Shown one piece after another: positions 1 through 15,468 of a stretch of DNA of 16,850 bases (position 1 is its first letter; the number at the start of each line of letters is the position of its first letter). The translations under genes were made by a program, and so were the position numbers. The stretch comes from a virus (taxonomy: Duplodnaviria; Heunggongvirae; Uroviricota; Caudoviricetes): positions 1-16,850 of IMG/VR virus record IMGVR_UViG_2778261504_000002; one strand, given 5' to 3'. The notes under the pieces were generated by a model. That model was not told where the DNA came from and made no database searches. It worked only from the letters and a program-made list of their open reading frames with translations.

Positions 1-301
<301 letters not shown>

Positions 302-305
<4 letters not shown>

Positions 306-919
306 AAATCATCCACCTTAGGCGCAGCTGAGACAGCAACATTCCAGAACTCAGAAAACATATTGTATGCACCAGATAGATTGGAAGTAGCATACCCTCC
401 AAGCTCACTTCTAATCTGAACGGCTCTCATCATTTCCGGGGTTAACTCCTTCGGCACCATAACCCAACCATCCGGAGTTACCGGAGAGTTGCCACCGGGA
501 ATATTTTCCGGAATATTTTGTTGTGCGTTTTGTGGTTGTTCTGATTTACCCTGAAGCATGGCGGCGCGGCAGGCGTTCCAGCCAGCTGTTCGCCCAAGCG
601 CGTAAACTTCAGATGGATCAAGATAATCAATGTCATGCCCGTCCTCATCGTCGTTCTCAGGTAATGCAGCAGGTACTACCGGTACTGGCGGAGCGGCGTA
701 GACCTCAATAATTCCATTATCAATAGGCCATTCTCCATCCTTGAGGTAGTCACTTGTGCCGTCAACTTGCTGTTCTGCAATGTGGAATGCACCTATTGGT
801 TTTGCTTCCAGCGATGCCAGAGCAATCCGTGCCAGTTCCATTTGTTCGCCACTAGTAAGTCCGTTATCAAGCGGGGATTTAATGAACAATTCGATACGTT
901 CTTTAGTGATAGTGCTCAT
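302..919 (-). CDS. hypothetical phage protein
   Basis: Track ORF 302..1018 trimmed to the ATG at 919 (MSTITKERIELF...), which has an AAGGAG Shine-Dalgarno about 6 nt upstream and sits 2 nt from the stop of the upstream gene. No recognisable domain. Confidence 0.5.
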
Positions 920-920
920 A

Positions 921-1478
921 TCACTCTCCTTTGATGCGAATGCCAGCTGCGCTTGCTGATTCTTCATATGCGCGTTTAGCAGCGTTAAGGATTGCTGCCA
1001 GTGGCGTATAGCCGCCATCCATTCGGATTGTGTTGTGGATGCCAGCCATTGTGTCGCGCAATTTGCTGTGGCTAGCAGACAGTTCTGCTATGCACTTCTC
1101 TGCGGCATCGGCTCGATCTTTTTCACGCTGGAACATTTTGTGAGTGCGGTCTATAGCTTCGATTCGTGCCGCTGATGTCTTCTGCACGGCTTCAAGCTCA
1201 ACACGCAGCTTCCCAACCGTAAGAGCAATATCCTCGTTCTTCTGGTCGCGGCGTTTGATGTATTGCTGGTTTCTTTCCCGTTCATCCAGTAGTGCCAGCA
1301 CGGTTTCTGGCCCGGTCAGAAATTTGAAGGCGTTGAGCGCATCAATATCCACACCGTAATCCTTAAGTTCCTGTTCAGTTAACAAATCATCATCAACTGG
1401 CAACATTAACAGGCGTTCCATTGCCGGAATTGCACGCTCTGCCGCCTCACGCAGTGCCTGATAGTCAATCTTGCTCAT
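921..1478 (-). CDS. hypothetical protein, predicted coiled-coil
   Basis: 185-aa ORF in the leftward operon, translationally coupled to its neighbours (4-nt start/stop overlaps). Charged, heptad-like composition. Function unknown. Confidence 0.55.
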   Translation of the reverse strand: MSKIDYQALREAAERAIPAMERLLMLPVDDDLLTEQELKDYGVDIDALNAFKFLTGPETVLALLDERERNQQYIKRRDQKNEDIALTVGKLRVELEAVQKTSAARIEAIDRTHKMFQREKDRADAAEKCIAELSASHSKLRDTMAGIHNTIRMDGGYTPLAAILNAAKRAYEESASAAGIRIKGE

Positions 1479-2050
1479 TGGATGACTCCTTTACGAAGCT
1501 GTTCGGCGATATCTTCGAGAACGCCATCAGAGAATGAACGGTCAAAATCGCCTTCCGGCGCATTGGCCATAAACTCAGTAGAGGTAAGAATCATCCGGGC
1601 AATATCAGCGGCGTTCTTCGCAGTATCATCAATAAAACCAGCTTCCCAGGCAGCCAGCATTCTGTTCGCCACAAAGTAAGCGCCCTCCTTGCGTGCTTCA
1701 GTCTTCACTTCAGGCAGAAAAGCATCGGTGGCTGGGGTTTCAGTAATATCATCTTCCCATTCGCTAAACTCCTCACGACAAAAGTCATTAAATTCCTTCT
1801 CAGATTGCTTAAGCGAGGAATTTTCAGCAGCCATCTTCGCGCATTTAGCCTCAAGGTTATCAATCGTGATTCCAGCAGAACGACACTCCCGCAACGCCGT
1901 TTCTAGTTTTGATTCAAGTTCACCGAACTTACGGACAAGATATTCATCGTTTGTTTCGTCAACCTTTAAATCACTTGGGATGCATTTACCTTTCAGAAAA
2001 CCATCCATCTCAATTAGTGTCATTTGTTTCATTTCTTCCCACTCCGCCAC
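1475..2050 (-). CDS. hypothetical protein
   Basis: 191-aa ORF in the same polarity, overlapping both neighbours. Acidic with a coiled-coil-like central region. Function unknown. Confidence 0.55.
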
Positions 2051-2193
2051 ATCGCATTCAGATATTTGTTGTCATTAACAGAACCGAAACTCTTTCTCTT
2101 AAGCAATTCCTCTCTCGATGGCATTGGCTTTGCGCGTTGGCGAATAATCATTTCTGCCGGAAGAATGCCGGGATTGTATGCAAGTCCTCTCAT
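2029..2193 (-). CDS. small hypothetical protein (start uncertain)
   Basis: Track ORF 2029..2343 overlaps the upstream gene in another frame. An internal ATG at 2193 is preceded by GAGGAA; an alternative ATG lies at 2211. About 55 aa. Confidence 0.3.
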
Positions 2194-2203
2194 GGTAAAT
2201 TCC

Positions 2204-2497
2204 TCAGTCATTACTGATAGCGCCATAGCGTGAGCGGTAATTACGCAGGCGCGGGTCAATTTCAGGGAAGTGGGTATATGTGGCTTTGCGGAATGGTCGG
2301 ATTGATGTCTGGTAAATTCGCTCGCGTTCTTCTTTCTCTGCAAGCCATATACAATGGCGAAATTCCTTTTCCTCTTTCGTTTCCTGCGGTAGCGACATTA
2401 TCCGATCGTAGTTTTTTCTGAATTTATCCAGCACCTCCGATACGGAATTGCCGGAACAGCGGCGCGCGTCATCCGCACCATACAGAGGCGCTGGCAT
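2204..2497 (-). CDS. hypothetical protein
   Basis: 97-aa ORF starting 16 nt downstream of the exonuclease stop with a GGAG-type ribosome-binding site. No recognisable domain. Confidence 0.5.
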
Positions 2498-2513
2498 GGT
2501 TTTCTCCTGTTGA

Positions 2514-3062
2514 TTATTTAGCTAACTTTTTCCAGATCGCTGAAACGTATTTGGCTTGGTGAATGGCATCATCAAGCGCGTTGTGGCGAGTTCCTTTGAA
2601 TGGCATATCTCGCTTAGGGTCTAATCCTATTACCCTCCCAAGTTCGACGATTGTTCTTACGTCGCGGTCATTCCACCACTGCCACGGAACTGGCTGCCCT
2701 GTCAGCGAATAACTGTTTCGGAGAATAACGCAGTCAAATGATGCTCCATTCCCCCAAACCTGAACGAATTTGTGGTTAGCGTTCTTTATGATGAATTCAG
2801 ATAACCATGAAAGAGCCGTTGAAAGCTCCTGAGTGTTGCTGGTTAGCGATTTTCTGGCTTCTTCACTCTGTTCCAGCCACCATAAAATCGTTGAAGCGTC
2901 AGGACGCGCCCGATATCGCATTGATGACTCAAGCGAGATATTTACCGAGAACTCTTCTCCTGTTTCTCCGGTATTCGGGTCAAAGAATACCGCCCCAATA
3001 GAAATAACTGGCGCATATGGCCCGTTGCCCATTGTTTCAAGGTCAACCATTAAGTGATTCAT
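2514..3062 (-). CDS. DnaQ-like (DEDDh) 3'-5' exonuclease
   Basis: 182-aa ORF with N-terminal MVDLETMG (Exo I DxE motif) and C-terminal HNALDDA (Exo III H-x4-D motif). Sits directly downstream of ssb in the recombination module. Confidence 0.75.
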   Translation of the reverse strand: MNHLMVDLETMGNGPYAPVISIGAVFFDPNTGETGEEFSVNISLESSMRYRARPDASTILWWLEQSEEARKSLTSNTQELSTALSWLSEFIIKNANHKFVQVWGNGASFDCVILRNSYSLTGQPVPWQWWNDRDVRTIVELGRVIGLDPKRDMPFKGTRHNALDDAIHQAKYVSAIWKKLAK

Positions 3063-3070
3063 GTAAGTCC

Positions 3071-3577
3071 TTAAATTGCGTGAATAGCGTGACGAGGGAA
3101 GGGGAGAGTTACTGGTGCAAAGGGTATATCGTCGTCAAAATCCATCGGAGGTTCGTTGTGTTGTGCTGGTGATGATTGCTGCTGTGGCTTCTGTGATTGC
3201 CTGCTGGCTGCTTGTTGTTTGCTGTCGCCAATTCCGCCAAGCATTTGCATCACGCCATTAATTCCGACATGAACCTCGGTTGTGTAACGGTCTTGCCCTG
3301 ACTGGTCTTTCCACTTTCTGGTTCTCAGCATTCCCTCGAAATAAATCTGATCACCTTTTTTCACATACTGCCCCACGACCTCAGCCAGTTTCCCGGATAT
3401 AGCAACACGATGCCATTCAGTCAATTCCTTTTGCTCGCCAGTATTTTTATCTCGCCATTGTTCTGACGTGGCTATTGTCAGGTTAGCGAACGCTGTACCT
3501 GATGGTGAGTATCGAACTTCCGGGTCTTGTCCTACCCGACCAAGGATAATCACCTTATTTACGCCTCTGCTTGCCAT
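3071..3577 (-). CDS. ssb: single-stranded DNA-binding protein
   Basis: N-terminal OB-fold sequence closely resembles E. coli SSB ([21 protein letters not shown]...TEWHRV), followed by a Q/S/P-rich linker and the acidic [10 protein letters not shown] tail. The ORF unusually continues 15 codons past DDDIPF. Confidence 0.9.
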
Positions 3578-4285
3578 TTATGCCGCCTGTTTTAGTTCGT
3601 TAACTCTGATGTTCATTACCTGAACGCATTTAGCCTGCGCCTCCTCATTGCCAGCCATTAATTGCCAGTCACGCTGATAACGCTCGATGAGTTTTTTCTT
3701 GTCAGTTTCTGTTGACGCATAATCGCTGAAGTCTTTCAGGATTTGTTCGCAGTCAACCGATGGAGATTTCTGGTTGGTATTTTCTGGTGATGGTTTGTTA
3801 TCTGATGCTGGTATTGCCCATCCCGGCAGCGATGGAGGGAGCCAGTAAAATCCTGTTCCATCCTTGAGTTTTGCCCTGTGCCATCCCTGCTTTTTATCGA
3901 GAGATGTTTGTGCGAAACCTTCCTCAAGGTTATACAGATACCGACCGATTCCCCACTGAACGGCAGCGCGCTTCATTGCACCGGAACGACCACCTTTGAC
4001 GGCTTCTACCTGCGTGTTTTCAGCAGCATCCCATTTGGTTACCCATTCGGAATCAATCTTTATTGATATGCCGCATTCAACGCCGCCGTTGTTGGGAATA
4101 TCGCGGTATTCATTGCGCCATCCTGCTTTGCCGCAAACATCGTCCAGGCGTTTCATGATTGCCCGGTTCGTTACATAAGCCAGCACCATAGCCCACACTT
4201 TGCCATCGCGTGTTTTACCGCTTTGCTGTATTCGCCATTCGATATCTTCAGGGCTGAATGGCTCATCGAATTTATTCAAATCCAT
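3578..4285 (-). CDS. single-strand annealing recombinase, Rad52/Sak-like
   Basis: 235-aa ORF immediately upstream of ssb and abutting it. The motif AMKRAAVQWGIGRYLY resembles the conserved Rad52-fold region. Start has a GAGGTG ribosome-binding site. Confidence 0.65.
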   Translation of the reverse strand: MDLNKFDEPFSPEDIEWRIQQSGKTRDGKVWAMVLAYVTNRAIMKRLDDVCGKAGWRNEYRDIPNNGGVECGISIKIDSEWVTKWDAAENTQVEAVKGGRSGAMKRAAVQWGIGRYLYNLEEGFAQTSLDKKQGWHRAKLKDGTGFYWLPPSLPGWAIPASDNKPSPENTNQKSPSVDCEQILKDFSDYASTETDKKKLIERYQRDWQLMAGNEEAQAKCVQVMNIRVNELKQAA

Positions 4286-4293
4286 AATTCACC

Positions 4294-4464
4294 TCAGAAT
4301 GGACACGGCCCAAGGAAATAACGCTGATTTAATACTTCAACTCGGGACAAATTAAGGCATACCCGCATTCCTTCGCGGTCGCCATTATGGCGATACCAGA
4401 GAGCTTTCTGCGTGTACATGCGTCTCTGTAACTTGCTCTCCTTCACTGTGGTTGCAAGTGACAT
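4294..4464 (-). CDS. small hypothetical ORF (56 aa)
   Basis: Hand-translated ORF below the track threshold (MSLATTVKESKLQRRMYTQ...), with AAGGAG 7 nt upstream of the ATG. Overlaps another small ORF (4385..4543) in a different frame, so at most one is likely fully real. Confidence 0.25.
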   Translation of the reverse strand: MSLATTVKESKLQRRMYTQKALWYRHNGDREGMRVCLNLSRVEVLNQRYFLGPCPF

Positions 4465-4543
4465 GAATATCTCCTTCGTTACCGATTAATTCTTTCATCT
4501 GACGAATGAATTCTTCGTCTGACCAGTTATCTGTAAAACTCAT
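4385..4543 (-). CDS. small hypothetical acidic ORF (52 aa)
   Basis: Hand-translated (MSFTDNWSDEEFIRQMKELIGNEGDIHV...). ATG overlaps the stop of the Kil-like ORF; ribosome-binding site is weak. Competes with 4294..4464. Confidence 0.25.
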   Translation of the reverse strand: MSFTDNWSDEEFIRQMKELIGNEGDIHVTCNHSEGEQVTETHVHAESSLVSP

Positions 4544-4692
4544 TTCCTGCGATACCACGGATGGTTGATAGCTGATTTCATCGCTTTATTTGCTTCAAGC
4601 CACATTTTTGAATCACCAATAAATCTGGCTATTACTGCTTTGTTCTGTGCAGCACGAAGCATCTGGTGATTGATGGCTATTTCATTGCGCAT
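4540..4692 (-). CDS. kil: Kil-like small protein (host division inhibitor family)
   Basis: Hand-translated 50-aa ORF MRNEIAINHQMLRAAQNKAVIARFIGDSKMWLEANKAMKSAINHPWYRRK. The FIGDxKM..EA core resembles lambda Kil as I recall it. GGAGG sits 5 nt upstream of the ATG. Position between cIII-like and the recombination genes matches lambda gene order. Confidence 0.45.
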   Translation of the reverse strand: MRNEIAINHQMLRAAQNKAVIARFIGDSKMWLEANKAMKSAINHPWYRRK

Positions 4693-4811
4693 AACGCCTC
4701 CAGTTGTTTCTTTGCTGCTCTGATTAATTGTTTAACTCGGCGTGATAATTCAGATTCGTGCGGGTAGAAAGCGGACATGACGCCGCTACCCGCGAGCTGA
4801 AAGTGCATCAT
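4677..4811 (-). CDS. cIII: cIII-like small protein (FtsH inhibitor family)
   Basis: Hand-translated 44-aa ORF MMHFQLAGSGVMSAFYPHESELSRRVKQLIRAAKKQLEALCAMK. The pattern AG..V....P.ES.L.R..R.L resembles lambda CIII (IAGWPVAGCPSESLLERITRKL). AAGGAG 6 nt upstream. The 79-aa track ORF 4677..4916 contains it, but its N-terminal part looks non-coding. Confidence 0.5.
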   Translation of the reverse strand: MMHFQLAGSGVMSAFYPHESELSRRVKQLIRAAKKQLEALCAMK

Positions 4812-4994
4812 GGGTAACTCCTTATATTTGATTGCATAACGAAAACGCCTCGAGTGAAGCGTTATTGGTATGCATATAAAAAAGCCCTCACACTGGAGGG
4901 CAAAGAAGATTTCCAATAATCAGAACAAGTCGGCTCCTGTTTAGTTACGAGCGACATTGCTCACATAGCAGACTCGCAAATCTGCTATAGGTGC

Positions 4995-5153
4995 TTATTC
5001 GCATCGCATGACAACATCAAATTTTTCGAGATTACTTTGTCGCAACAATCCTTCTTCTACGCGGTCAGCTTTTCTATAATTATCAAATTCGAAATGTTTA
5101 ATTACTTCTTTCGTTTCTCGCTCTATAACTTCAACAATGTATTTCTTATTCAT
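4995..5153 (-). CDS. small hypothetical ORF (about 52 aa)
   Basis: Hand-translated ORF (MNKKYIVEVIERETKEVIKHFEF...) whose ATG overlaps the stop of the upstream 98-aa gene (ATGA arrangement). AT-rich, below the track threshold. Confidence 0.3.
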   Translation of the reverse strand: MNKKYIVEVIERETKEVIKHFEFDNYRKADRVEEGLLRQSNLEKFDVVMRCE

Positions 5154-5449
5154 CATTCTTCCCCAAGAGCTTTTCTGATTGCTGCAAGACCTTTATTAAC
5201 AGCTCCATACCATTCTGGATATGTTGTCTTTGTTCTATTTTTGGTTTGCTTAAGTAATAACTGAAGTGCTTCGAGAAGGTCAGGTGCTGCCGCTATTAGA
5301 TTGGCATCTTCAATGCATTGAACTTCCTCACAGATTGCAATATACGAACGCCAGCCTGCGCCATTTTCAAGTGAGTCTGCCTGGATGATTTTAATCTCAT
5401 CGCCATCCATCATTATTTCCCACTTACCTTCAGTACCTTTAAATTCCAT
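5153..5449 (-). CDS. hypothetical protein
   Basis: 98-aa ORF in pL-operon polarity, immediately downstream of a terminator-like hairpin. No recognisable domain. Confidence 0.5.
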   Translation of the reverse strand: MEFKGTEGKWEIMMDGDEIKIIQADSLENGAGWRSYIAICEEVQCIEDANLIAAAPDLLEALQLLLKQTKNRTKTTYPEWYGAVNKGLAAIRKALGEE

Positions 5450-5470
5450 GTTAGCCTCTGTTGTTTATGC

Positions 5471-5496
5471 CAAAAATAAAGGCCGACTATTCGGCC
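5471..5496 (-). terminator. intrinsic terminator-like hairpin within the pL operon
   Basis: GGCCGA-N4-TCGGCC stem at 5481..5496, followed on the minus strand by TTTATTTTTG. The hairpin overlaps the stop codon of the 107-aa gene. A candidate N-suppressible terminator. Confidence 0.5.
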
Positions 5497-5810
5497 TTAT
5501 CTACATTCCTGAACCAAACGCAGATCGGACCGTCTTCTGTATCGTGAATCGAACCGACAAACCATCCTTCTCCATCTGGCATGCTTGGCTCCCATCCACT
5601 GATGTTTTGATTCCCATCTTCAAAATACGCGTCAATTACCGTTTGATTGTTGTCGTTTTCCATTTCAACAATTGATGATTCAATGCCATGCTGCTTGCAG
5701 AAAGATCTGAACTCATCAGCTGAAATTACCTCTCTATCCCCAAACAGGTTGGCGTATTCTGGGTGCGTCCAGTAGCCATCCTCGCTTCGCTCTACTACTA
5801 ATGCTTCCAT
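5487..5810 (-). CDS. hypothetical, strongly acidic protein
   Basis: 107-aa ORF with a GAGGTG ribosome-binding site. About 24 Asp/Glu against about 6 basic residues. No recognisable domain. Confidence 0.55.
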   Translation of the reverse strand: MEALVVERSEDGYWTHPEYANLFGDREVISADEFRSFCKQHGIESSIVEMENDNNQTVIDAYFEDGNQNISGWEPSMPDGEGWFVGSIHDTEDGPICVWFRNVDKAE

Positions 5811-5990
5811 ATCTCACCTCAAATAAGTGGTTTGCTGCCTAATTTCATTTTCTGGCGACCAACACAAGTCACACCCATTTCACTGCGTGGCTTGCTGTAG
5901 TAAAGATTGTGCCTGTCTTTTAACCACATCAGGCTCGGTGGTTCTCGTGTACCCCTACAGCGAGAAAAATAGTAAAATCCTCTCACCCCC

Positions 5991-6353
5991 TTATTTTATC
6001 AGGGGGATATCTCCTTCAGTTCTGACCATTCGCCTTAATACTTTCCTTAAGTCGATGTAAAGTTGAAGGTCTCCATTTGCTGCGGCATCAGCCATTTTTT
6101 GCCTGACAAGCAGTAATGTTTCATACGGCTCAATAAGAATATCGTCATGAGTAATTAGGTGAAGCGTTGCCGCATCAACTATTCCTAGAGCTGCGCCAAG
6201 TATCAAAAATTCCCTGCTATTTTTGTCACATGAGGAGGTAAGCGTATTTAGCGCATACCTAATATTCTTTATAGCTGTTGTTAATGCTGCAATTTCTTCT
6301 ATGGCGTCTTCTTCAATGAGCTTTTTAAGCTCATATTTTTCTTCCTGACCCAT
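5991..6353 (-). CDS. hypothetical protein
   Basis: Track ORF 5991..6422 trimmed to the ATG at 6353 (MGQEEKYELKK...), which follows a GAGG ribosome-binding site and lies 2 nt downstream of the N stop. A hairpin CCCCCT-N9-AGGGGG overlaps its stop codon. Confidence 0.5.
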   Translation of the reverse strand: MGQEEKYELKKLIEEDAIEEIAALTTAIKNIRYALNTLTSSCDKNSREFLILGAALGIVDAATLHLITHDDILIEPYETLLLVRQKMADAAANGDLQLYIDLRKVLRRMVRTEGDIPLIK

Positions 6354-6355
6354 AA

Positions 6356-6739
6356 TTACCTCGCCGTCAGTTGTTTTGATTTCCGGTAGCCTGCCGCGTA
6401 AATGGCTACGTTTGGAAGACATACACCAGTTTCTGGTTGCTTATGTCCAAACTCATTCGCGTACACAATGGCCGCTCGCTCCAGATTGCGTCTGTATTCT
6501 TTCTGTTGCCAGATCACGTCCTGTGCCATGAACTTAATTGGCTTAGCGTCTTCTATGCGCTCAGGCGTTTCGTGAGTACCTTTAGCCTGAATCTGCGCTC
6601 TGCTTAGAGTAGGGCGGTGTAATACTTCTGAACTTATTGCTTCTTCGCGGGCCAGTACGCCGTTAGCTAATGCCTTTGCCTTTAAACGCTCACGACGACG
6701 AGAACGTGAATTGCCTTTGAACTGAGTTCTGCGTGTCAT
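6356..6739 (-). CDS. N: N-type transcription antitermination protein (P22 gp24 family)
   Basis: Track ORF 6356..6841 trimmed to the ATG at 6739, preceded by AGGAGG. The N-terminus has an arginine-rich motif (TRRTQFKGNSRSRRRERLKAKA). The C-terminus LPNVAIYAAGYRKSKQLTAR closely matches the end of P22 gp24 (LLPGVALYAAGHRKSKQITAR) as I recall it. Confidence 0.75.
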   Translation of the reverse strand: MTRRTQFKGNSRSRRRERLKAKALANGVLAREEAISSEVLHRPTLSRAQIQAKGTHETPERIEDAKPIKFMAQDVIWQQKEYRRNLERAAIVYANEFGHKQPETGVCLPNVAIYAAGYRKSKQLTAR

Positions 6740-6868
6740 ATAGACCTCCTGATGAACTTTGGTGGTGAATACAGCCGGGCGACTAACTCCGGTCGCGTAA
6801 TCATTGCAAAGCGCCTCCGCCGAGAAGGTTAGCTTCTGCATTCACCCCAAAGTTCACTTTGGTTATTG

Positions 6869-6883
6869 CGCTTTGTCAGCGCC
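6869..6883 (-). promoter_or_regulatory. nutL boxB hairpin (P22-type)
   Basis: Minus strand reads GCGCTGACAAAGCGC, a 5-bp stem with a GACAA loop, between pL and N. A convincing boxA was not found. Confidence 0.6.
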
Positions 6884-6950
6884 GTAGATTCATATTCGAA
6901 TCGTTGTATATTCACCGCCCTGGTGAGTAGTGCGTCCTGCTGATGGGTGA

Positions 6951-6998
6951 ACTTTATCGGAATGATAAATTAATGGCAATAGCAAAATGATAAATTCT
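6951..6998 (-). promoter_or_regulatory. pL promoter with OL operator repeats
   Basis: Minus strand reads TTGCCA-17 nt-TAAAGT (-35 at 6974..6979, -10 at 6951..6956). The 10-mer ATGATAAATT occurs at 6962..6971 and 6987..6996 and again in the cI-cro intergenic region. Confidence 0.55.
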
Positions 6999-7170
6999 CT
7001 TGGTTTTCAAATATCGTATTGATTCTTATGGTGTTTTATTTTGTTGTAGGAATTCGACAGGATAAATAAAGAGATTTGAGGGAGATCTGGATTGCGTTGT
7101 TTAGCAAGTTGTATCTATTTATTTTTCAACAAATACAATTGGTTATGTGTTTTTAGGTGTGGGGATCGTG

Positions 7171-7200
7171 AGGCAAAGAAAACCCGGCGCTGAGGCCGGG
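7171..7200 (-). terminator. intrinsic terminator downstream of the TAC module
   Basis: CCCGGC-N6-GCCGGG hairpin at 7183..7200, followed on the minus strand by TTTTCTTTG. Lies 10 nt after the stop of the chaperone gene. Confidence 0.55.
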
Positions 7201-7209
7201 TGGGGAATT

Positions 7210-7614
7210 TCACTTATTACTGTTCGTTTCCATGGGATTGGCCAAGAAATCAAAATAAGGCAGAGTGAACCTACCAAGGTTTGACATGAGGATAATTTGC
7301 TCGGCATATGTTTTTATATAGGGATATGCCATATTGGGAGCAATGGACCTTACCTCATATGATTTTGCCATTTCATGAGAAAAATCATCTTCTGACCGGA
7401 AGTCAAAGTCGTATGTGATGTCCATCTCAAGCCTGCCTTCAATAGTTACGGAGGCAAAATATCTCACTCTAAATAGCTTTGAATCCTTCACATTAGTGTA
7501 AAGTTCATTATTTAGATTAACGGTTGTTTTTATGGCTTTTTTTGCTGTTGAATCGCCTTCTAGCCGTGTCATAACCAAGCGTTCAACTTTTTTGCTAATG
7601 AGTTCAATTTTCAT
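7210..7614 (-). CDS. SecB-like chaperone of a toxin-antitoxin-chaperone (TAC) system
   Basis: 134-aa ORF whose start overlaps the antitoxin stop (ATGA). C-terminal region IAPNMAYPYIKTYAEQIILMSNLGRFTLPYFDF resembles SecB ([25 protein letters not shown]) and the M. tuberculosis TAC chaperone Rv1957 (YPYIREYVYDLTGRLALPPL). AT-rich compared with flanking phage DNA. Similarity judged from memory. Confidence 0.6.
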   Translation of the reverse strand: MKIELISKKVERLVMTRLEGDSTAKKAIKTTVNLNNELYTNVKDSKLFRVRYFASVTIEGRLEMDITYDFDFRSEDDFSHEMAKSYEVRSIAPNMAYPYIKTYAEQIILMSNLGRFTLPYFDFLANPMETNSNK

Positions 7615-8267
7615 GGTAATAATAAGTAATTTCCGTCAGAAGTCATTTCGTCATTCAGGTTGCTAGCCGCTGTGAAACTTGATGACAAGTTACTTATCAA
7701 AGAAAAAACATTCCGTTTTTCTTTGCATTTGCCATTACCCCTTACTGCGCTGAACAACATTTTTGAAAAGTAAGATTCTGTAGCCTTTTCAGCGAAATAA
7801 GCAGAAGGTGATGTGACGGCTGACTCACACCGAGCAATGACGCTAGTCATGGCTGTTTCTTCTTCCTCTGCGTCAACTAGGCTCCATTCAATTGCGCTCA
7901 TATCTTGAATTAAGATATCTGCAGGAATTCCAAGTCCGTCATGTAGTCTACGGATCATTGAAAGACTTAATGGACGCTTACGATTTAAGACCTCAGATAC
8001 TTTAGATGCTGAGCCAATGTATTGTTTCATATCGGCATAAGAGAGGCCTTGTTGATCCATACGGAACTTGATTGCTTCTATGGGATCTGGCTTGTCCATA
8101 GGGAACTCGCGTGACTCATAGTGCTCGATAAGCAAGCCTAGTAGTTCAAACTCATCAAAATCTTCAGTTCCAGGTTGTAAATCACTAGACGCAAGTTCAA
8201 TGAGCCTTTCCATAGCTGCAGCATGCTCTTCACTATTTTTAATGATGCGCCAGCTAGTTCGATTCAT
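7611..8267 (-). CDS. higA: HigA-like HTH antitoxin with a roughly 95-aa C-terminal extension
   Basis: Residues about 60-125 (IKFRMDQQGLSYADMKQYIGSASKVSEVLNRKRPLSLSMIRRLHDGLGIPADIL) resemble E. coli HigA. The ORF continues about 95 aa beyond the point where canonical HigA ends. Start overlaps the toxin stop. Confidence 0.7.
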   Translation of the reverse strand: MNRTSWRIIKNSEEHAAAMERLIELASSDLQPGTEDFDEFELLGLLIEHYESREFPMDKPDPIEAIKFRMDQQGLSYADMKQYIGSASKVSEVLNRKRPLSLSMIRRLHDGLGIPADILIQDMSAIEWSLVDAEEEETAMTSVIARCESAVTSPSAYFAEKATESYFSKMLFSAVRGNGKCKEKRNVFSLISNLSSSFTAASNLNDEMTSDGNYLLLP

Positions 8268-8551
8268 TTAAGCCTCCACTTGTCGTACTCTGCATGAGTT
8301 CCAACTCTTTCAACTATGACCATTCCTGCCTGGTAAACAACTTGGACAACGAGCCGATAGTTATTGCCTTTTATATTAAAAATTACCCTGTTGTTAGGAA
8401 GGAAGTCGGCAGAATTAAATCTATTCCGTATGTCTTGAGTCGTTTTCCAGTTTTCTCTTATCACTTCATCATACCAAGAGTCTAAAGCCCCCTTGGCCTG
8501 ATTGTGCTTCCGGCTAAAACTGTGAAGCTTCTCTACGTTTAAGACCTTCAT
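8264..8551 (-). CDS. higB: HigB-like toxin (RelE/ParE-fold mRNA interferase)
   Basis: 95-aa ORF. C-terminal RVIFNIKGNNYRLVVQVVYQAGMVIVERVGTHAEYDKW aligns with E. coli HigB (HYVFNVGGNELRVVAMVFFESQKCYIREVMTHKEYD) as I recall it. Toxin-first order and tight coupling to the antitoxin. Confidence 0.75.
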   Translation of the reverse strand: MKVLNVEKLHSFSRKHNQAKGALDSWYDEVIRENWKTTQDIRNRFNSADFLPNNRVIFNIKGNNYRLVVQVVYQAGMVIVERVGTHAEYDKWRLK

Positions 8552-8563
8552 AATCCGATTTTG

Positions 8564-8605
8564 TTCCCTCTTTGGGAATTATAGATTCATTTCCCATAAA
8601 GGGAA
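8564..8605 (-). promoter_or_regulatory. TAC promoter with paired inverted-repeat operators
   Basis: Perfect TATAAT on the minus strand (plus 8578..8583), flanked by two copies of TTCCC-N5-GGGAA (8564..8578 and 8591..8605), within 60 nt upstream of the higB ATG. The proximal repeat also covers the AGAGGGAA ribosome-binding site. Confidence 0.45.
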
Positions 8606-8687
8606 TCTGTATTTTTATCCAGAAATGCTATGTACATCACCCAAACGTCTCTTCAGGCCACTGGTTACCAGCTATGTGACGATGAAG

Positions 8688-9392
8688 TCACGAACTTTTC
8701 AGCCACTCCCTTGCCTCGATGTCATCCAGATGGCGAGATTGCTTCAGAATACCAGCCACATACTCCACCTTTGCTACTTGATGATAAGGCAACGTTATTG
8801 GCCTGTGGTCCTGGTTGATGCTTGTAAATTGGTATTCTCCGTCTCTGTCATAGCCAAGAACTTTGATCATGTTGTGTCCTTCAACAGTTCTGACAAACAC
8901 CTCATCACCCGGGAATACTTTGGTGTTAGGCTCAATGAGTACATATTCTCCTGATTTTATTCTGGGCCACATGCTGTCTCCTTTCACACGAAGACCAAAG
9001 GCATCTGGATCATCGCTATAAATTTTGAGCCACCCATCGCGCTCTTCGGTCATCTCGATGGCACCATCAACACCAAGAATTGCCTCACCAACCACGCGCA
9101 CTAACCCTTTTCTTACCTGACCGACAAAAGTTAAAGAATCTGAGCATGATGCAATTGGTGTTACATCATGTACCAAATCAAGCCACCCATTAGGTAACCC
9201 AAGCGCGGCTTCAAATTTTCTTGCTAGTTTATCCCCTATGTTTCGAGTGCTTTTTTCACCGGAGACTTGCGTGAGTTGAGAAGGGCTAACCCCAAGCTTA
9301 TCGGCAAAGCTTGCATTAGTGTTACCCGCGATTTTTTTATGCTCATCTAGCAAAAACGCCAGATTCGATTTGCGAATATCTTTGTTTTCCAT
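8688..9392 (-). CDS. cI: CI-like prophage repressor (HTH plus S24 LexA-like peptidase domain)
   Basis: 234-aa ORF transcribed away from cro. N-terminal HTH (NASFADKLGVSPSQLTQV) and a C-terminal region with the GDSMWP Ser-protease motif and a downstream Lys, as in autocleaving repressors. Sequence is unlike lambda, 434 or P22 repressors as far as I recall. Confidence 0.85.
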   Translation of the reverse strand: MENKDIRKSNLAFLLDEHKKIAGNTNASFADKLGVSPSQLTQVSGEKSTRNIGDKLARKFEAALGLPNGWLDLVHDVTPIASCSDSLTFVGQVRKGLVRVVGEAILGVDGAIEMTEERDGWLKIYSDDPDAFGLRVKGDSMWPRIKSGEYVLIEPNTKVFPGDEVFVRTVEGHNMIKVLGYDRDGEYQFTSINQDHRPITLPYHQVAKVEYVAGILKQSRHLDDIEAREWLKSS

Positions 9393-9419
9393 CTCACAAT
9401 TTTCCCTCTATTTAGCAAA

Positions 9420-9500
9420 TGGATAAATACGCAATATGATAAATTTACATTGCGGATGATTTATCAAAATGGTAAAGTTGTTCTGTGTGATAAACGGAGG
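9420..9500. promoter_or_regulatory. OR operator region with pR (and presumably pRM)
   Basis: Plus strand reads TTGCGG-17 nt-TAAAGT (-35 at 9450..9455, -10 at 9473..9478) upstream of cro. Operator-like repeats ATGATAAATT (9436..9445), ATGATTTATCA (9456..9466) and TGATAAAC (9488..9495). Architecture mirrors pL. Confidence 0.5.
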
Positions 9501-9505
9501 CACTA

Positions 9506-9739
9506 ATGAGTAATGAACTACTACGCTGGCGAAAAGAGGCTTCTAGTGAGGAATGGAAGCGACTCGCCGCATTAGCGAAAACTTCAGTTGGCTATCTTGA
9601 CCAGATTGCATATGGATTTCGAAGAGCTTCCCCTGATAAAGCGAATGCAATCGAAGAAGCTACTCGTAATTTCACGGGTTATAAACCTGTGAAAAAGGAA
9701 AACCTAGTGTTCGTATCGCGTAGAGCATCGGCTGCATAA
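9506..9739 (+). CDS. cro: Cro-like HTH regulator
   Basis: 77-aa ORF transcribed away from cI, with a GGAGG ribosome-binding site. First gene of the rightward operon. Family assignment is by position and size rather than strong sequence recall. Confidence 0.6.
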   Translation: MSNELLRWRKEASSEEWKRLAALAKTSVGYLDQIAYGFRRASPDKANAIEEATRNFTGYKPVKKENLVFVSRRASAA

Positions 9740-9777
9740 GTAACACCGCTATTTTCACAATGGACATTCGTCCTACG

Positions 9778-9792
9778 TCGCTGACAAAGCGA
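9778..9792 (+). promoter_or_regulatory. nutR boxB-like hairpin
   Basis: TCGCTGACAAAGCGA: 5-bp stem with the same GACAA loop as the nutL boxB. Located between cro and cII. Confidence 0.5.
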
Positions 9793-9877
9793 GTCCCAAT
9801 ATATCTGACCAACTAAGGCCACATGCGTTTCCACGCATACCTTTCAACTAACTATTCACTATTGGAAATCTTAAGAA

Positions 9878-10177
9878 ATGGAACAAACAAGTTACAGCAA
9901 ACTATCACAGCGAGAAATTGATCGCGCTGAAACTGATTTACTCATCAACCTGTCAACGCTTACCCAGCGCGGTCTGGCAAAGATGATTGGCTGTCATGAA
10001 TCGAAGATAAGCAGAACGGACTGGAGATTTATTGCTTCGGTCTTGTGTGCTTTCGGAATGGCATCAGACATCAGTCCGATTAGCAGAGCTTTTAAGTATG
10101 CGCTTGATGGACTCACCAATAAAAAACGCCCGGTGTGCAAGACCGAGCGTTCTGAACAAATCCAGATGGAATTCTGA
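9878..10177 (+). CDS. cII: CII transcriptional activator
   Basis: C-terminus LTNKKRPVCKTERSEQIQMEF matches lambda CII (ILTNKKRPAATERSEQIQMEF). The HTH region differs from lambda. Confidence 0.9.
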   Translation: MEQTSYSKLSQREIDRAETDLLINLSTLTQRGLAKMIGCHESKISRTDWRFIASVLCAFGMASDISPISRAFKYALDGLTNKKRPVCKTERSEQIQMEF

Positions 10178-10199
10178 GGGAATTACTGGATCAATCCAC
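10119..10199 (-). ncRNA. oop: oop-like antisense RNA
   Basis: The region over the cII 3' end and the cII-O junction matches lambda oop as I recall it. On the minus strand it ends in a hairpin (CGCTCGG...CCGGGCG) plus TTTTTTAT. Confidence 0.45.
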
Positions 10200-10209
10200 A
10201 GGAGTCATT

Positions 10210-11148
10210 ATGACAAATACAGCAAAAATACTCAACTTCGGCAGAGGTAACTTTGCCGAACAGGAGCGTAATGTGGCAGATCTCGATGATGGTTACGCCA
10301 GACTATCAAATATGCTGCTTGAGGCCTATTCAGGCGCAGATCTGACCAAGCGACAGTTTAAAGTGCTGCTTGCCATTCTGCGTAAAACCTATGGGTGGAA
10401 TAAACCAATGGACAGAATCACCGATTCTCAACTTAGCGAGATTACAAAGTTACCTGTCAAACGGTGCAATGAAGCCAAGTTAGAACTCGTCAGAATGAAT
10501 ATTATCAAGCAGCAAGGCGGCATGTTTGGACCAAATAAAAACATCTCAGAATGGTGCATCCCTCAAAACGAGGGAGGTTCCCCTAAAATGAGGGACATCC
10601 CTCAAAACGAGGGAAAATCCCCTAAAACGAGGGATAAAACATCCCTCAAATTAGGGGATTGCTATCCCTCAAAACAGGGGGACACAAAAGACACTATTAC
10701 AAAAGAAAAAAGAAAAGATTATTCGTCCGAGAATTCTGGCGAATCCTCTGACCAGCCAGAAAACGATCTTTCTGTGGTTAAACCGGATGCTGCAATTCAG
10801 AGCGGCAGCAAGTGGGGAACAGCAGAAGACCTGACCGCCGCAGAGTGGATGTTTGACATGGTGAAGACCATCGCACCATCAGCCAGAAAACCGAATTTTG
10901 CAGGGTGGGCTAACGATATCCGCCTGATGCGTGAACGTGACGGACGTAACCACCGCGATATGTGTGTGCTTTTCCGCTGGGCCTGCCAGGACAACTTCTG
11001 GTCCGGTAACGTGCTGAGTCCGGCCAAACTCCGCGACAAGTGGACCCAGCTCGAAATCAACCGTAACAAGCAACAGGCAGCCGTGACAGCCAGCAAACCA
11101 AAACTCGACCTGACAAACACAGACTGGATTTACGGGGTGGATCTATGA
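10210..11148 (+). CDS. O: replication initiator O
   Basis: Near-identical to lambda O along its length (MTNTAKILNFGRGNFA...TNTDWIYGVDL), with an extra 13 aa (GGSPKMRDIPQNE) in the iteron-encoded segment. Confidence 0.95.
   Translation: MTNTAKILNFGRGNFAEQERNVADLDDGYARLSNMLLEAYSGADLTKRQFKVLLAILRKTYGWNKPMDRITDSQLSEITKLPVKRCNEAKLELVRMNIIKQQGGMFGPNKNISEWCIPQNEGGSPKMRDIPQNEGKSPKTRDKTSLKLGDCYPSKQGDTKDTITKEKRKDYSSENSGESSDQPENDLSVVKPDAAIQSGSKWGTAEDLTAAEWMFDMVKTIAPSARKPNFAGWANDIRLMRERDGRNHRDMCVLFRWACQDNFWSGNVLSPAKLRDKWTQLEINRNKQQAAVTASKPKLDLTNTDWIYGVDL
10559..10682 (+). repeat. ori-lambda iterons (six copies) with adjacent AT-rich region
   Basis: Six tandem roughly 18-19 bp repeats of the TCCCTCAAAACGAGGGA type inside O, followed by the AT-rich stretch at 10683..10720. 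Canonical lambda has four as I recall. Confidence 0.85.
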
Positions 11149-11846
11149 AAAACATCGCCGCACAGATGGTTAACTTTGACCGTGAGCAGATGCGTCGGAT
11201 CGCCAACAACATGCCGGAACAGTACGACGAAAAGCCTCAGGTACAGCAGGTAGCGCAGATCATCAACGGTGTGTTCAGCCAGTTACTGGCAACTTTCCCG
11301 GCGAGCCTGGCTAACCGTGACCAGAACGAACTGAACGAAATCCGCCGCCAGTGGGTTCTGGCTTTCCGGGAAAACGGGATCACCACAATGGAACAGGTTA
11401 ACGCAGGAATGCGCGTAGCCCGTCGGCAGAATCGACCATTTCTGCCATCACCCGGGCAGTTTGTTGCATGGTGCCGGGAAGAAGCATCCGTTATCGCCGG
11501 ACTGCCAAACGTCAGCGAGCTGGTTGATATGGTTTACGAGTATTGCCGGAAGCGAGGCCTGTATCCGGATGCGGAGTCTTATCCGTGGAAATCAAACGCG
11601 CACTACTGGCTGGTTACCAACCTGTATCAGAACATGCGGGCCAATGCGCTTACTGATGCGGAATTACGCCGTAAGGCCGCAGATGAGCTTGTCCATATGA
11701 CTGCGAGAATTAACCGTGGTGAGGCGATCCCTGAACCAGTAAAACAACTTCCTGTCATGGGCGGTAGACCTCTAAATCGTGCACAGGCTCTGGCGAAGAT
11801 CGCAGAACTCAAAGCTAAGTTCGGACTGAAAGGAGCAAGTGTATGA
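11145..11846 (+). CDS. P: replication protein P (DnaB helicase loader)
   Basis: Essentially identical to lambda P (MKNIAAQMVNFDREQMRRIANNMPEQYDEK...KFGLKGASV). Start overlaps the O stop. Confidence 0.95.
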   Translation: MKNIAAQMVNFDREQMRRIANNMPEQYDEKPQVQQVAQIINGVFSQLLATFPASLANRDQNELNEIRRQWVLAFRENGITTMEQVNAGMRVARRQNRPFLPSPGQFVAWCREEASVIAGLPNVSELVDMVYEYCRKRGLYPDAESYPWKSNAHYWLVTNLYQNMRANALTDAELRRKAADELVHMTARINRGEAIPEPVKQLPVMGGRPLNRAQALAKIAELKAKFGLKGASV

Positions 11847-12133
11847 CGGGCAAAGAGGCAATTATTCATTACCTGGGGACGCATAATAGCTTCTGTGCGC
11901 CGGACGTTGCCGCGCTAACAGGCGCAACAGTAACCAGCATAAATCAGGCCGCAGCTAAAATGGCACGGGCAGGTCTTCTGGTTATCGAAGGTAAGGTCTG
12001 GCGAACGGTGTATTACCGGTTTGCTACCAGGGAAGAACGGGAAGGAAAGGTGAGCACGAACCTGATTTTTAAGGAGTGTCGCCAGAGTGCCGCGATGAAA
12101 CGGGTATTGGCGGTATATGGAGTTAAAAGATGA
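11843..12133 (+). CDS. ren: Ren
   Basis: 96-aa ORF matching lambda Ren (MTGKEAIIHYLGTHNSFCAPD...). Start overlaps the P stop. Confidence 0.9.
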   Translation: MTGKEAIIHYLGTHNSFCAPDVAALTGATVTSINQAAAKMARAGLLVIEGKVWRTVYYRFATREEREGKVSTNLIFKECRQSAAMKRVLAVYGVKR

Positions 12134-12158
12134 CCATCTACATCACTGAGCTAATGAC

Positions 12159-12190
12159 AGGCCTGCTGGTAATCGCAGGCCTTTTTATTT
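12159..12190 (+). terminator. tR2-like intrinsic terminator
   Basis: Perfect 8-bp stem AGGCCTGC / GCAGGCCT with an 8-nt loop, followed by TTTTATTT. Lies directly downstream of ren, as in lambda. Confidence 0.75.
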
Positions 12191-12203
12191 GGGGGAGAGG
12201 GAA

Positions 12204-12506
12204 GTGAACGATAGCTACCGACAGTTTGAAAACTGGTGGTCAAAAGACAAAAGCCAGTTCACGGGAGACGATGAATTAAAAGAGTTTGCCTGGGTGATAT
12301 GGCAGGCATCGCGCTCTGCTATTGAACTGGATATCGACTGGCCCGAATCGAATGACGACTTTTGGAAAGATGGTGAAGAAGGTGCTTATGCGATGGGTTA
12401 TGAGGATGGGCGTGACAAAACGGTAATTGCAGTAATGAAAGCTATCAGAGCCGCTGGAATTAAAGAGAAGAATTTCGATGAAGCAAACAATATTCCTCCG
12501 AACTAA
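12204..12506 (+). CDS. hypothetical acidic protein
   Basis: Track ORF 12189..12506. Probable GTG start at 12204 preceded by GGGGGAGAGGGAA. Lies between tR2 and ninB, where lambda has no gene. Confidence 0.45.
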   Translation: MNDSYRQFENWWSKDKSQFTGDDELKEFAWVIWQASRSAIELDIDWPESNDDFWKDGEEGAYAMGYEDGRDKTVIAVMKAIRAAGIKEKNFDEANNIPPN

Positions 12507-12888
12507 GCAACAACAGCAAGCCGCAATCAACGCCATCCTCGCAACACCACTCGATAAAGACAAGCCAGTCACCATCCGCATTACTGACTACAAGCGCAAC
12601 CTTGACCAGAACGCAAAATTTCACGCGATGCTGGCGGATATCGCACGTCAGGTTCAATGGTGCGATAAGTGGTTAAAACCAGAACAATGGAAGGTTTTGT
12701 TGATTAGCGGTCATGCAGTGGCAACAAAGCAGGAAGCTGATGTTTTGCCCGGCCTTGAAGGCGAATACGTCAACATTCGCGAAAGTAGCGCGCAGATGAG
12801 TGTGAAGCGTATGGCAAGTCTGATTGAGTACACGACAGCATGGGCTATTGGTCAGGGCGTCAGATTTACCGACAGGAGGTACGAATGA
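12478..12888 (+). CDS. ninB: NinB (recombination protein)
   Basis: 136-aa ORF with the NinB pattern (AAINAIL...[33 protein letters not shown]), comparable to lambda NinB. Confidence 0.85.
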
Positions 12889-13061
12889 GACGACAGCGAC
12901 GAAGTATCACCGACATAATCTGTGAAAACTGCAAATACCTTCCAACGAAACGCTCCAGAAATAAACGCAAGCCAATCCCAAAAGAATCTGACGTAAAAAC
13001 CTTCAACTACACGGCTCACCTGTGGGATATCCGGTGGCTAAGACATCGTGCGAGGAAATGA
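12885..13061 (+). CDS. ninE: NinE
   Basis: Track ORF 12840..13061 trimmed to the ATG at 12885 ([27 protein letters not shown]...), near-identical to lambda NinE. ATGA overlap with ninB. Confidence 0.85.
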
Positions 13062-13063
13062 CA

Positions 13064-13465
13064 ATGCTTTTAATTCAACCTGGATTTGGACTTAGCATCA
13101 AAAAAGGCCACATGTTTGGCGAGAAAGAGTCACAACGAAAAATGGTGTCTATCCGGTTGCCATTTATCAGTATTTATTGGCTAAACAGGGAGGCAACAAA
13201 TTATTGGTATACATGCGCCAGAGCAGCATTTAACGACCCTGACTGGTTTGTGAAAAACCACCACGCAGTTCGTCAGGCAAAGAGAAAGGCCAATATGACA
13301 TACATGAAGGCGTATCAAAAAGCATGGAAAGAACACCGCGATCGATACCAACAAGACATGGAAAAGCTTGAATCAGAAAACATGGAATTAAGACGAAAGC
13401 TCGGTGAAGCAAAACGAGACATTGATGCTTACAAGCGACTTTTTAATGGTGAAAGCCATGCTTAG
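13064..13465 (+). CDS. hypothetical protein (start uncertain)
   Basis: Track ORF 13022..13465. ATG at 13064 has GAGGAA 7 nt upstream. The C-terminal part is coiled-coil-like. Lies between ninE and ninF, which abut each other in lambda. Confidence 0.4.
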   Translation: MLLIQPGFGLSIKKGHMFGEKESQRKMVSIRLPFISIYWLNREATNYWYTCARAAFNDPDWFVKNHHAVRQAKRKANMTYMKAYQKAWKEHRDRYQQDMEKLESENMELRRKLGEAKRDIDAYKRLFNGESHA

Positions 13466-13634
13466 CCCATCCCAATCCCTTCAATACCAGAAAGAAAGCG
13501 TCGAGCGAGCTTTAACGTGCGCTAACTGCGGTCAGAAGCTGCATGTGCTGGAAGTTCACGTGTGTGAGCACTGCTGCGCAGAACTGATGAGCGATCCGAA
13601 TAGCTCAATGTACGAGGAAGAAGACGATGAGTGA
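13458..13634 (+). CDS. ninF: NinF
   Basis: Track ORF 13404..13634 trimmed to MLSPSQSLQYQKESVERALTCANCGQKLHVLEVHVCEHCCAELMSDPNSSM..., which matches lambda NinF. Confidence 0.85.
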   Translation: MLSPSQSLQYQKESVERALTCANCGQKLHVLEVHVCEHCCAELMSDPNSSMYEEEDDE

Positions 13635-14136
13635 TGTTAAAGAAAAAGATATCCCCGGCTTTGAGGGTATATATAAAGTAACTGAAAATGGAGACATCAT
13701 TTCATGCCGTAAATCAAAAAAATTATCTCATGGCATTAAACCAGGAGGATATGCATTTGTCGGTCTGTATCCAGGTGGCGGGAAAAGACCATCATATAAA
13801 ATGGTTCACAGAATTGTTGCAGAAGTATTTATTGATAACCCAGATGGCAAACCGGAAGTTAATCACAAGGATGGAAATAAACTTAATAATAAAGTTGAAA
13901 ATCTTGAGTGGGTAACGCGAACAGAAAATGCGAAACATGGATTTGATTCCGGATTGCTTGTTCATGGGTTTAATCATCACTTCTGCAAACTAACGCCAGA
14001 ACAAGTGAAATCAATATATAAATCAAAAGGCAAATACAGAGATATAGCCAAAGAATTTGGTGTTTGTGCGCAGACAGTGTGCAACATAAAAAACAAATCA
14101 GCGTACCGACGTTTTTTGGAGGGGATTGATGTTTAG
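13627..14136 (+). CDS. HNH homing-type endonuclease
   Basis: 169-aa ORF with a NUMOD4-like N-terminus (GFEGIYKVTENGDIIS) and an HNH motif (VNHKDGNKLNNKVENLEWVTRTENAKHG). Markedly AT-rich codon usage relative to neighbours. Confidence 0.75.
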   Translation: MSDVKEKDIPGFEGIYKVTENGDIISCRKSKKLSHGIKPGGYAFVGLYPGGGKRPSYKMVHRIVAEVFIDNPDGKPEVNHKDGNKLNNKVENLEWVTRTENAKHGFDSGLLVHGFNHHFCKLTPEQVKSIYKSKGKYRDIAKEFGVCAQTVCNIKNKSAYRRFLEGIDV

Positions 14137-14404
14137 AAGCAAAAAATGGCTTCAGGCAGTCAGGGATATTGAATTTTGCGTTCTTTGCGGAAGATACGGA
14201 GTTCAGGCCGCTCATAGAAATGAAGGGAAGGGGGTTGGGATTAAAGTAGATGATTGCCTTACTGCTGCGCTATGTGTTGATTGTCATTCAAGAATTGATA
14301 ATGGGAGAGATATGAGCAGGGAAGAGCGAAGGGCTGAAATGGATCGGGCCATTGTGCTTACCCTTAAAAAATTGGTTAACAATGGGAGGGTGTTTGTCCA
14401 ATGA
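14126..14404 (+). CDS. DUF1364/YbcO-like Cys-rich protein (putative nuclease)
   Basis: 92-aa ORF with CVLCG...AAH...CVDCH..ID, similar in layout to prophage YbcO-type proteins. Sits directly upstream of rusA, as in DLP12-like nin regions. Confidence 0.55.
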   Translation: MMFRSKKWLQAVRDIEFCVLCGRYGVQAAHRNEGKGVGIKVDDCLTAALCVDCHSRIDNGRDMSREERRAEMDRAIVLTLKKLVNNGRVFVQ

Positions 14405-14763
14405 ACGAATATCAGTTTGTGCTTCCATACCCGCCGTCGGTGAATACCTACTGGCGAAGACGGGGAAGCCAATACTACATCAGCGATAAAGGCCAGAAAT
14501 ACCGAAAAGACGTTCAGCAAATCATCCGCCAACTTAAGTTAGACATTTTCACCAAATCACGACTCCGCATCAAAGTCATCGCAGACGCTCCAGACTCCCG
14601 CCGCCGCGACCTCGACAACATCCTGAAAGGTTTACTCGACTCACTTATCCACGCCGGATTTGCGGAAGACGACGAGCAATTCGATGACATTCGCGTAATT
14701 CGTGGTGTGAAAGTACCAGGCGGACGGCTTGGAATAAAAATCACCGAACTGGAGAACGTATGA
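14401..14763 (+). CDS. rusA: RusA Holliday-junction resolvase
   Basis: 120-aa ORF. LPYPPSVNTYWRRRG...DRRRRDLDNILKGLLDSL...GGRLGIKITE matches E. coli RusA motifs (LPWPPSNNRYY...DRRRRDLDN...GGRLELTITE). Confidence 0.9.
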   Translation: MNEYQFVLPYPPSVNTYWRRRGSQYYISDKGQKYRKDVQQIIRQLKLDIFTKSRLRIKVIADAPDSRRRDLDNILKGLLDSLIHAGFAEDDEQFDDIRVIRGVKVPGGRLGIKITELENV

Positions 14764-15433: not shown

Positions 15434-15439
15434 AACGTG

Positions 15440-15468
15440 TTGACATCATTGAGCAAATGAGCAACACT
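15440..15468 (+). promoter_or_regulatory. candidate late promoter pR'
   Basis: Perfect TTGACA at 15440..15445, 7 nt after the Q stop. The -10 is not clear (AACACT or CACTAT candidates). Assigned mainly by position. Confidence 0.35.

Follow-up and report, generated by a model that had tools for sequence, protein, structure and literature searches.

A prophage-borne HigBAC operon whose HigA antitoxin carries a chaperone-addiction tail, near-identical to the characterised operon of Escherichia coli NT1F31

The window analyzed in the current study (the whole stretch of 16,850 nt, positions 1 to 16,850 of IMG/VR virus record IMGVR_UViG_2778261504_000002) corresponds to the early region of a lambdoid prophage whose immunity region is of the H-19B/BP-4795 type. 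It contains a co-directional operon in the order toxin, antitoxin, chaperone (table 1), in which both gene junctions are 4-nt ATGA start/stop overlaps. The product of the first gene, higB, matched Pfam family PF09907 (4.5e-30; 104 bits, the cut-off being 27) as well as PADLOC profile PD-Lambda-2_A (2.5e-42).

Table 1. Coordinates of the higBAC operon and its flanking signals in the window.
Feature	Position	Strand	Basis
higB toxin, 95 aa, RelE/HigB family	8551..8264	minus	Pfam PF09907; PADLOC PD-Lambda-2_A; match to NT1F31 'TOX' fragment
higA, HigA-like ORF, 218 aa + stop	8267..7611	minus	Pfam HTH_3; PDB alignment
higA N-terminal domain, residues 1-121, canonical HigA/Xre HTH antitoxin domain	7905..8267	minus	HTH_3; 5ifg/5ycl; AF2; homologue identity
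higA chaperone-addiction (ChAD) tail, residues 122-218, 97 residues	7614..7904	minus	AF2 disorder; no family match; published residue numbers; primers oKE85-92
higC, 134-aa SecB-like (SecB-TA) chaperone	7210..7614	minus	PADLOC PD-T4-9_C; AF2; Foldseek; primers oKE97-102
Intrinsic terminator directly 3' of higC	7182..7201	minus	7-bp stem with 6 GC pairs, then T-run
Two TTCCC-N5-GGGAA palindromes around TATAAT upstream of higB	8564..8605	minus	candidate HigA operators and candidate promoter

Upstream of higB, the two inverted repeats (8591-8605 and 8564-8578) enclose a TATAAT sequence at 8583..8578, about 27 nt ahead of the higB ATG and with a poor -35 element. A scan for consensus promoters flagged none for higBAC and did not call this site. 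The palindromes are candidate HigA operators placed over a putative promoter. At the other end of the operon, the primer 'MT16_terminator_rev', used for cloning from strain NT1F31 (see below), anneals at 7171-7190, just past the higC terminator. An AT-rich non-coding gap of about 370 nt (6842-7209) reaches from this terminator (7201..7182) to an N-like ORF (6841..6356), and includes, at 6979..6951 of the minus strand, a sequence resembling a promoter. By analogy with phage lambda, pL/oL and nutL should lie in this gap.

In the HigA protein, the Pfam HTH_3 domain was detected at residues 67-118, and HigA of E. coli K-12 (PDB 5ifg/5ycl, 138 aa) aligned to residues 53-119, the alignment reaching residue 133-135 of the 138 in the K-12 chain. 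Since this nearly reaches the end of the chain, a canonical HigA would stop at about residue 120-122 of the protein studied here. The AF2 model, built with an alignment of 30 homologues, showed seven helices in the N-terminal domain with pLDDT above 90 for blocks in residues 11-120, and the helical HTH domain was modelled confidently up to about residue 125. The canonical two-gene HigBA of E. coli K-12 shares an alignable HTH domain, but has neither a C-terminal extension nor a chaperone gene.

The HigA-like ORF was predicted from the raw sequence to run on past the HTH domain for about 95 residues, and an extension of 97 residues (122-218) was found. The interval originally assigned to it, 7611..7900, takes in the stop codon and residues 123-218, whereas the published deletion begins at residue 122 (window 7902-7904), which gives 7614..7904 for the tail. 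Its composition (16 Ser, 11 Ala, 10 Glu, 8 Leu, 6 Thr, 6 Asn and 5 Phe) is Ser/Ala/Glu-rich; the earlier description as Ser/Ala/Phe-rich holds for Ser and Ala, but Phe is only modestly raised (5 of 97 residues). The tail had also been described as lacking an obvious fold, in agreement with the AF2 model, in which residues 129-218 have pLDDT below 50 (33-43) and no secondary structure and are therefore predicted to be disordered. Searches of Pfam, NCBIfam and PADLOC found no family covering the tail.

The best 120 homologues of HigA were sorted by length into long (at least 185 aa) and short (less than 150 aa) proteins. A tail was present in 78 of the 120, all of them long, while 38 were short, most of these ending opposite query residues 124-134. 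In Klebsiella, Salmonella, Serratia, Citrobacter and Yersinia, homologues retained tails of 60-110 residues. In the long homologues the median identity was 72.5% in the N-terminal domain as compared with 19% in the tail, where indels were also numerous. Certain aromatic positions of the tail stood out from this variation: W128 was kept in 96% of the long homologues, and an aromatic residue was found at position 158 in 81% and at position 214 in 84%.

These data bear on two alternative readings of the tail. According to the first, it would be a non-functional read-through or an annotation artefact of a two-gene higBA lying beside an unrelated gene, as the generic names in RefSeq ('helix-turn-helix domain-containing protein' and 'hypothetical protein') and the lack of annotation here in the H-19B record might suggest. 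At the local base composition, however, 97 codons in a row would stay open by chance with a probability of only about 0.0013, and the tail has a pN/pS of 0.48. Moreover, tails are retained across the five genera named above, the ATGA overlaps couple all three genes, the chaperone gene co-occurs, and deletion of the tail has a published phenotype. This reading is so improbable that it was given almost no weight; tail conservation together with the deletion phenotype refutes it.

According to the second, the tail would be an independently folded accessory domain with an enzymatic or sensory role, comparable to the C-terminal peptidase of PD-lambda-2B. Relatives with a folded C-terminal domain do exist, and the N-terminal 123 residues of HigA matched the PADLOC profile PD-Lambda-2_B (3.8e-50, 402 positions), but the match was confined to profile positions 3-125. 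Residues 128-218 belonged to no Pfam, NCBIfam or PADLOC family, and even with the 30-sequence alignment AF2 gave low confidence and no secondary structure across the tail. The low identity, the many indels and the retention of single aromatic positions only are SLiM-like, and the published deletion and point mutants fit a linear-motif region (bioRxiv 10.1101/2024.02.24.581848). A folded domain is very improbable on this evidence, and a peptidase fusion resembling PD-lambda-2 was rejected on the missing family match and the low AF2 confidence.

The third gene had been predicted to encode a SecB-like chaperone directly downstream of the antitoxin, and the results for HigC bear this out. Over its full length HigC matched PADLOC profile PD-T4-9_C (3.2e-11), which represents CmdC, the SecB-like chaperone of the CmdTAC system. 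The AF2 model (mean pLDDT 86.9) consists of four long strands and a long helix, and in a Foldseek search its best PDB match was 5mtw, M. tuberculosis Rv1957 with a ChAD peptide (E 5e-7, TM 0.73-0.75), followed by SecB of E. coli (1qyn) and of H. influenzae (1fx3); the top three matches ranged from E 5e-7 to 3e-6 and from TM 0.70 to 0.77. Searches with sequence only were negative: HigC had no match to Pfam SecB (PF02556) at E<=1 or in NCBIfam, and neither a single-sequence phmmer search nor an hmmsearch with a 20-sequence profile found a match in PDB sequences. The assignment of HigC as a chaperone with a predicted SecB fold is thus supported by the modelled structure, the PADLOC profile and the literature, where sequence-only searches fail. 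Among 20 homologues, pocket residues N41, R49 and D71 were invariant and Y39 was conserved in at least 90%. The possibility that HigC is a housekeeping export SecB was rejected, as no Pfam SecB match was found and the gene lies in a prophage immunity region, not in the context yibN-grxC-secB-gpsA.

An operon of this type from E. coli NT1F31 has been characterized in the HigBAC preprint of Mets et al., which reportedly came out later in Cell Host & Microbe. The NT1F31 HigBAC described there is an anti-phage system of a lambdoid prophage, in which it lies downstream of cI (Mets et al. 2024, bioRxiv 10.1101/2024.02.24.581848). The ChAD of NT1F31 HigA is unstructured and comprises residues 122-218, the protein ending in Leu-Pro, and HigC has pockets composed of Y39, N41, R49 and D71 that take up W128, F158, F188 and Y214 of the tail (bioRxiv 10.1101/2024.02.24.581848). 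In ITC experiments, a peptide covering the first part of the ChAD (HigA 121-146 or 121-148) bound HigC with a KD of 1.3 uM, and the W128A substitution abolished binding (bioRxiv 10.1101/2024.02.24.581848). The lambda tail protein gpV triggers the system by competing for HigC, and the published experiments include aromatic substitutions, gpV escape mutants and competition (bioRxiv 10.1101/2024.02.24.581848).

The operon of the window was compared with that of NT1F31, whose chromosome is GenBank CP045190 (PMC8627205). The fragments and primers in the supplement of the preprint allowed a direct comparison of about 60% of the operon, and the rest of higA and higC was compared by residue numbering. 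For higB, 287 of 288 nt were identical to the NT1F31 'TOX' fragment, the single difference (window 8460) giving I31 here and R31 in NT1F31. The first 399 nt of the cloned NT1F31 TAC fragment agreed at 391 positions, and seven substitutions were found in the leader, within the roughly 150 nt upstream of higB. In higA, higC and the terminator, 24 primer segments mapped to the window with 0-1 mismatches each. The ChAD mutagenesis primers oKE85-92 (0-1 mismatch) fell on the expected codons of the tail and the HigC mutagenesis primers oKE97-102 (0 mismatches) on those of higC, while the ChAD-deletion primer places a stop right after Q121 (window 7905). One primer mismatch (window 7714) corresponds to R185 in HigA here and Q185 in NT1F31; this position lies three residues N-terminal to the F188 anchor.

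All eight published residues (W128, F158, F188 and Y214 of HigA; Y39, N41, R49 and D71 of HigC) were found at the same positions in the window proteins, and HigA likewise has 218 aa and ends in LLLP. Judged from the fragments and primers, which match with 0-1 mismatches, the window carries what is evidently a near-identical allele of the characterized NT1F31 HigBAC. The two share the operon, the ChAD at residues 122-218, the 134-aa HigC, the Leu-Pro C-terminus and the site downstream of cI, and over the compared parts they differ in HigB I31/R31, HigA R185/Q185 and the seven leader substitutions. NT1F31 itself was not among the matches listed from the 88 E. coli genomes found to carry higBAC (see below).

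Taken together, the data support the reading of the tail as a ChAD, and it was estimated with a probability of about 0.95 that 7614..7904 encodes the ChAD of HigA in a prophage-borne HigBAC toxin-antitoxin-chaperone anti-phage system near-identical to that of NT1F31; no observation contradicted it. The prediction that the tail makes HigA depend on the chaperone has been shown experimentally for the near-identical NT1F31 allele, in which HigA without residues 122-218 neutralizes HigB independently of the chaperone (bioRxiv 10.1101/2024.02.24.581848). This tail truncation, and also AlphaFold-Multimer modelling with a HigC tetramer, had both been proposed as checks and are both already published (bioRxiv 10.1101/2024.02.24.581848). 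Published work already covers not only the tail, with its boundaries and key residues, but also the chaperone and the phage trigger.

The mechanism has been shown in the literature for the NT1F31 allele, and we infer it for the allele of the window. By analogy, the disordered tail would make free HigA unstable, and the HigC tetramer would hold it through W128, F158, F188 and Y214, which are spaced by about 30 residues and would occupy equivalent Y39/N41/R49/D71 pockets. As long as the tail is held, HigA would persist and the HigB mRNA interferase would be neutralized. During infection by a lambda-like siphovirus, the nascent major tail protein gpV, which has a similar aromatic pattern (W36, W67), would compete for HigC; with HigC taken, HigA would be lost and HigB would shut down translation, restricting the infection. 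Since the operon occupies the slot between cI and pL/N, which holds rexAB in lambda, the lysogen would carry HigBAC as superinfection-exclusion cargo.

A different account of the dependence on HigC is that the tail acts mainly through aggregation of HigA and not through a degron, with HigC serving as an anti-aggregation holdase. In the original prediction the tail makes the antitoxin aggregation-prone, and antitoxins are so described in the M. tuberculosis TAC literature. CamSol also predicts an aggregation-prone patch around F188, and the toxicity of HigBA was slightly lower with F188A (bioRxiv 10.1101/2024.02.24.581848). Without HigC, however, HigA was undetectable by immunoblot, and ChAD-tagged mNeonGreen was diffuse and fivefold weaker, with no visible aggregates (bioRxiv 10.1101/2024.02.24.581848). 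The toxicity of HigBA persisted in clpP, clpX, lon and hslVU mutants, and the authors concluded that what HigC prevents is not aggregation but degradation of HigA, by some protease distinct from ClpXP, Lon and HslVU (bioRxiv 10.1101/2024.02.24.581848). For NT1F31, degradation is thus favoured, the term aggregation-prone is not borne out by the reporter, and an effect mainly through aggregation is unlikely.

The preferred reading of the tail as a ChAD can be set against other systems. The M. tuberculosis TAC system (Rv1955 HigB1, Rv1956 HigA1 and Rv1957 SecB-TA; 5mtw) has the same three-part logic, the same toxin and antitoxin families and the same chaperone fold, but Rv1957 and HigC are only 16-17% identical, and the ChAD studied here is more than twice as long as that of M. 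tuberculosis and wraps four sites. Unlike M. tuberculosis HigA1, which has a C-terminal Val-Ala ClpXP degron, HigA here ends in Leu-Pro, and NT1F31 data indicate independence of ClpXP (bioRxiv 10.1101/2024.02.24.581848). Whereas HigBAC here is prophage-borne, the M. tuberculosis system lies on the chromosome, and studies have dealt with it as a stress-responsive system.

CmdTAC (PD-T4-9) of E. coli ECOR22/O112ab:H26 is also a prophage-borne TAC system in phage defence, but only its chaperone is homologous. Its toxin is an mRNA ADP-ribosyltransferase and not HigB, its antitoxin is unrelated to HigA and ends in Ala-Ala, leading to ClpXP dependence, and it defends against T-even phages and not against lambda. 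The modules of the two systems are nevertheless interchangeable, since a hybrid of HigC and CmdTA reportedly works.

PD-lambda-2 (Vassallo et al. 2022, PMC9519451), which also acts against lambda, has a homologous HigB and a homologous HigA N-terminal domain. In PD-lambda-2B a C-terminal peptidase domain replaces the ChAD, and B, not A, is the toxic component (PMC9519451); the third gene is P4-antitoxin-like and not SecB-like (PMC9519451). The operon of the window is not a member of this system, as the match to PD-Lambda-2_B ends at position 125 of 402 and the third gene matches PD-T4-9_C. The end of the match at this position is explained by the peptidase that PD-lambda-2B carries instead of a ChAD. 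The comparison with these systems shows modular exchange, in which the HigBA core is shared while the C-terminal module and the third gene are swapped. In lambda, RexAB occupies the same slot between cI and pL/N and is likewise an exclusion system expressed in the lysogen, but its proteins and mechanism are unrelated.

The operon was present in 88 of 5,426 complete E. coli genomes, in 83 of the 88 at 99% identity or more, and the carriers included O26:H11 11368 and O157:H7 86-24. Phage BP-4795 (ORF20-22, annotated 'hypothetical'), ST2-8624 and numerous Stx1a- and Stx2a-converting phages carry it at 100% identity, and its position between N and cI is also seen in phages BP-4795 and H-19B. Many Stx1a- and Stx2a-converting phages of O26, O157 and O103 EHEC thus have a characterized anti-lambda abortive-infection system in their immunity region. 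Immunity regions of the H-19B/BP-4795 type, such as that of the carrier here, are typical of Stx-converting phages; the preprint on the NT1F31 operon makes no mention of such a region, and the word 'Shiga' is absent from its text. The location in Stx phages is relevant to phage-phage exclusion and to the spread of Stx phages, which are not discussed by Mets et al.

Variation within the operon was examined by comparing window positions 7210-7904 and the HigA N-terminal domain with a 95%-identical allele from E. coli CUVM3 (NZ_CP116970.1). The N-terminal domain had 0 nonsynonymous and 8 synonymous changes, and the tail 14 nonsynonymous and 8 synonymous changes, so that all amino-acid changes of HigA fell in the tail. 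With a pN/pS of 0.48, which is below 1, the tail is, as far as this pair of alleles indicates, relaxed yet still constrained. HigC had also diverged (17.5 nonsynonymous changes, pN/pS 0.29), which suggests that the tail and HigC may diversify together.

In BP-4795 (AJ556162.1), a long-tailed Stx1 phage, the major tail subunit (ORF64, 20188-21033) gave one weak 25-residue HSP with lambda gpV. This HSP lay outside the trigger region, and no counterpart of the gpV trigger segment (W36, S54, DDED, W67) was found in ORF64. A carrier of the BP-4795 type may therefore not trigger its own HigBAC, although this comparison is suggestive only. The ChAD tail and HigC could be a pair of sensors that diversify rapidly and together, different alleles recognizing different phage structural proteins. 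In EHEC, the allele of the Stx-converting phages (H-19B/BP-4795-type immunity region) would then determine which lambdoid or Stx phages are able to superinfect a lysogen, while sparing the gpV-unlike tail tube of the carrier. This proposal is tentative and somewhat doubtful; it is hinted at by the low identity of the tail (19%) compared with the N-terminal domain (72.5%), the confinement of all 14 nonsynonymous changes to the tail, the divergence of HigC and the lack of the trigger in the BP-4795 subunit.

As a discovery the ChAD adds little, having already been dissected experimentally in HigA, although it was deduced correctly from the raw sequence alone in the original prediction; the small additions are the Stx-phage context and a gap in annotation. 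Among the matches listed from RefSeq, higC was always named 'hypothetical protein', and the usual name of higA was 'helix-turn-helix domain-containing protein'. The annotation thus lags behind the literature, with generic names for both genes, a chaperone missed by Pfam SecB and, in the H-19B record (AF034975.3, 1963-3910), an operon falling within a 1.9-kb gap between N and cI that is left unannotated.
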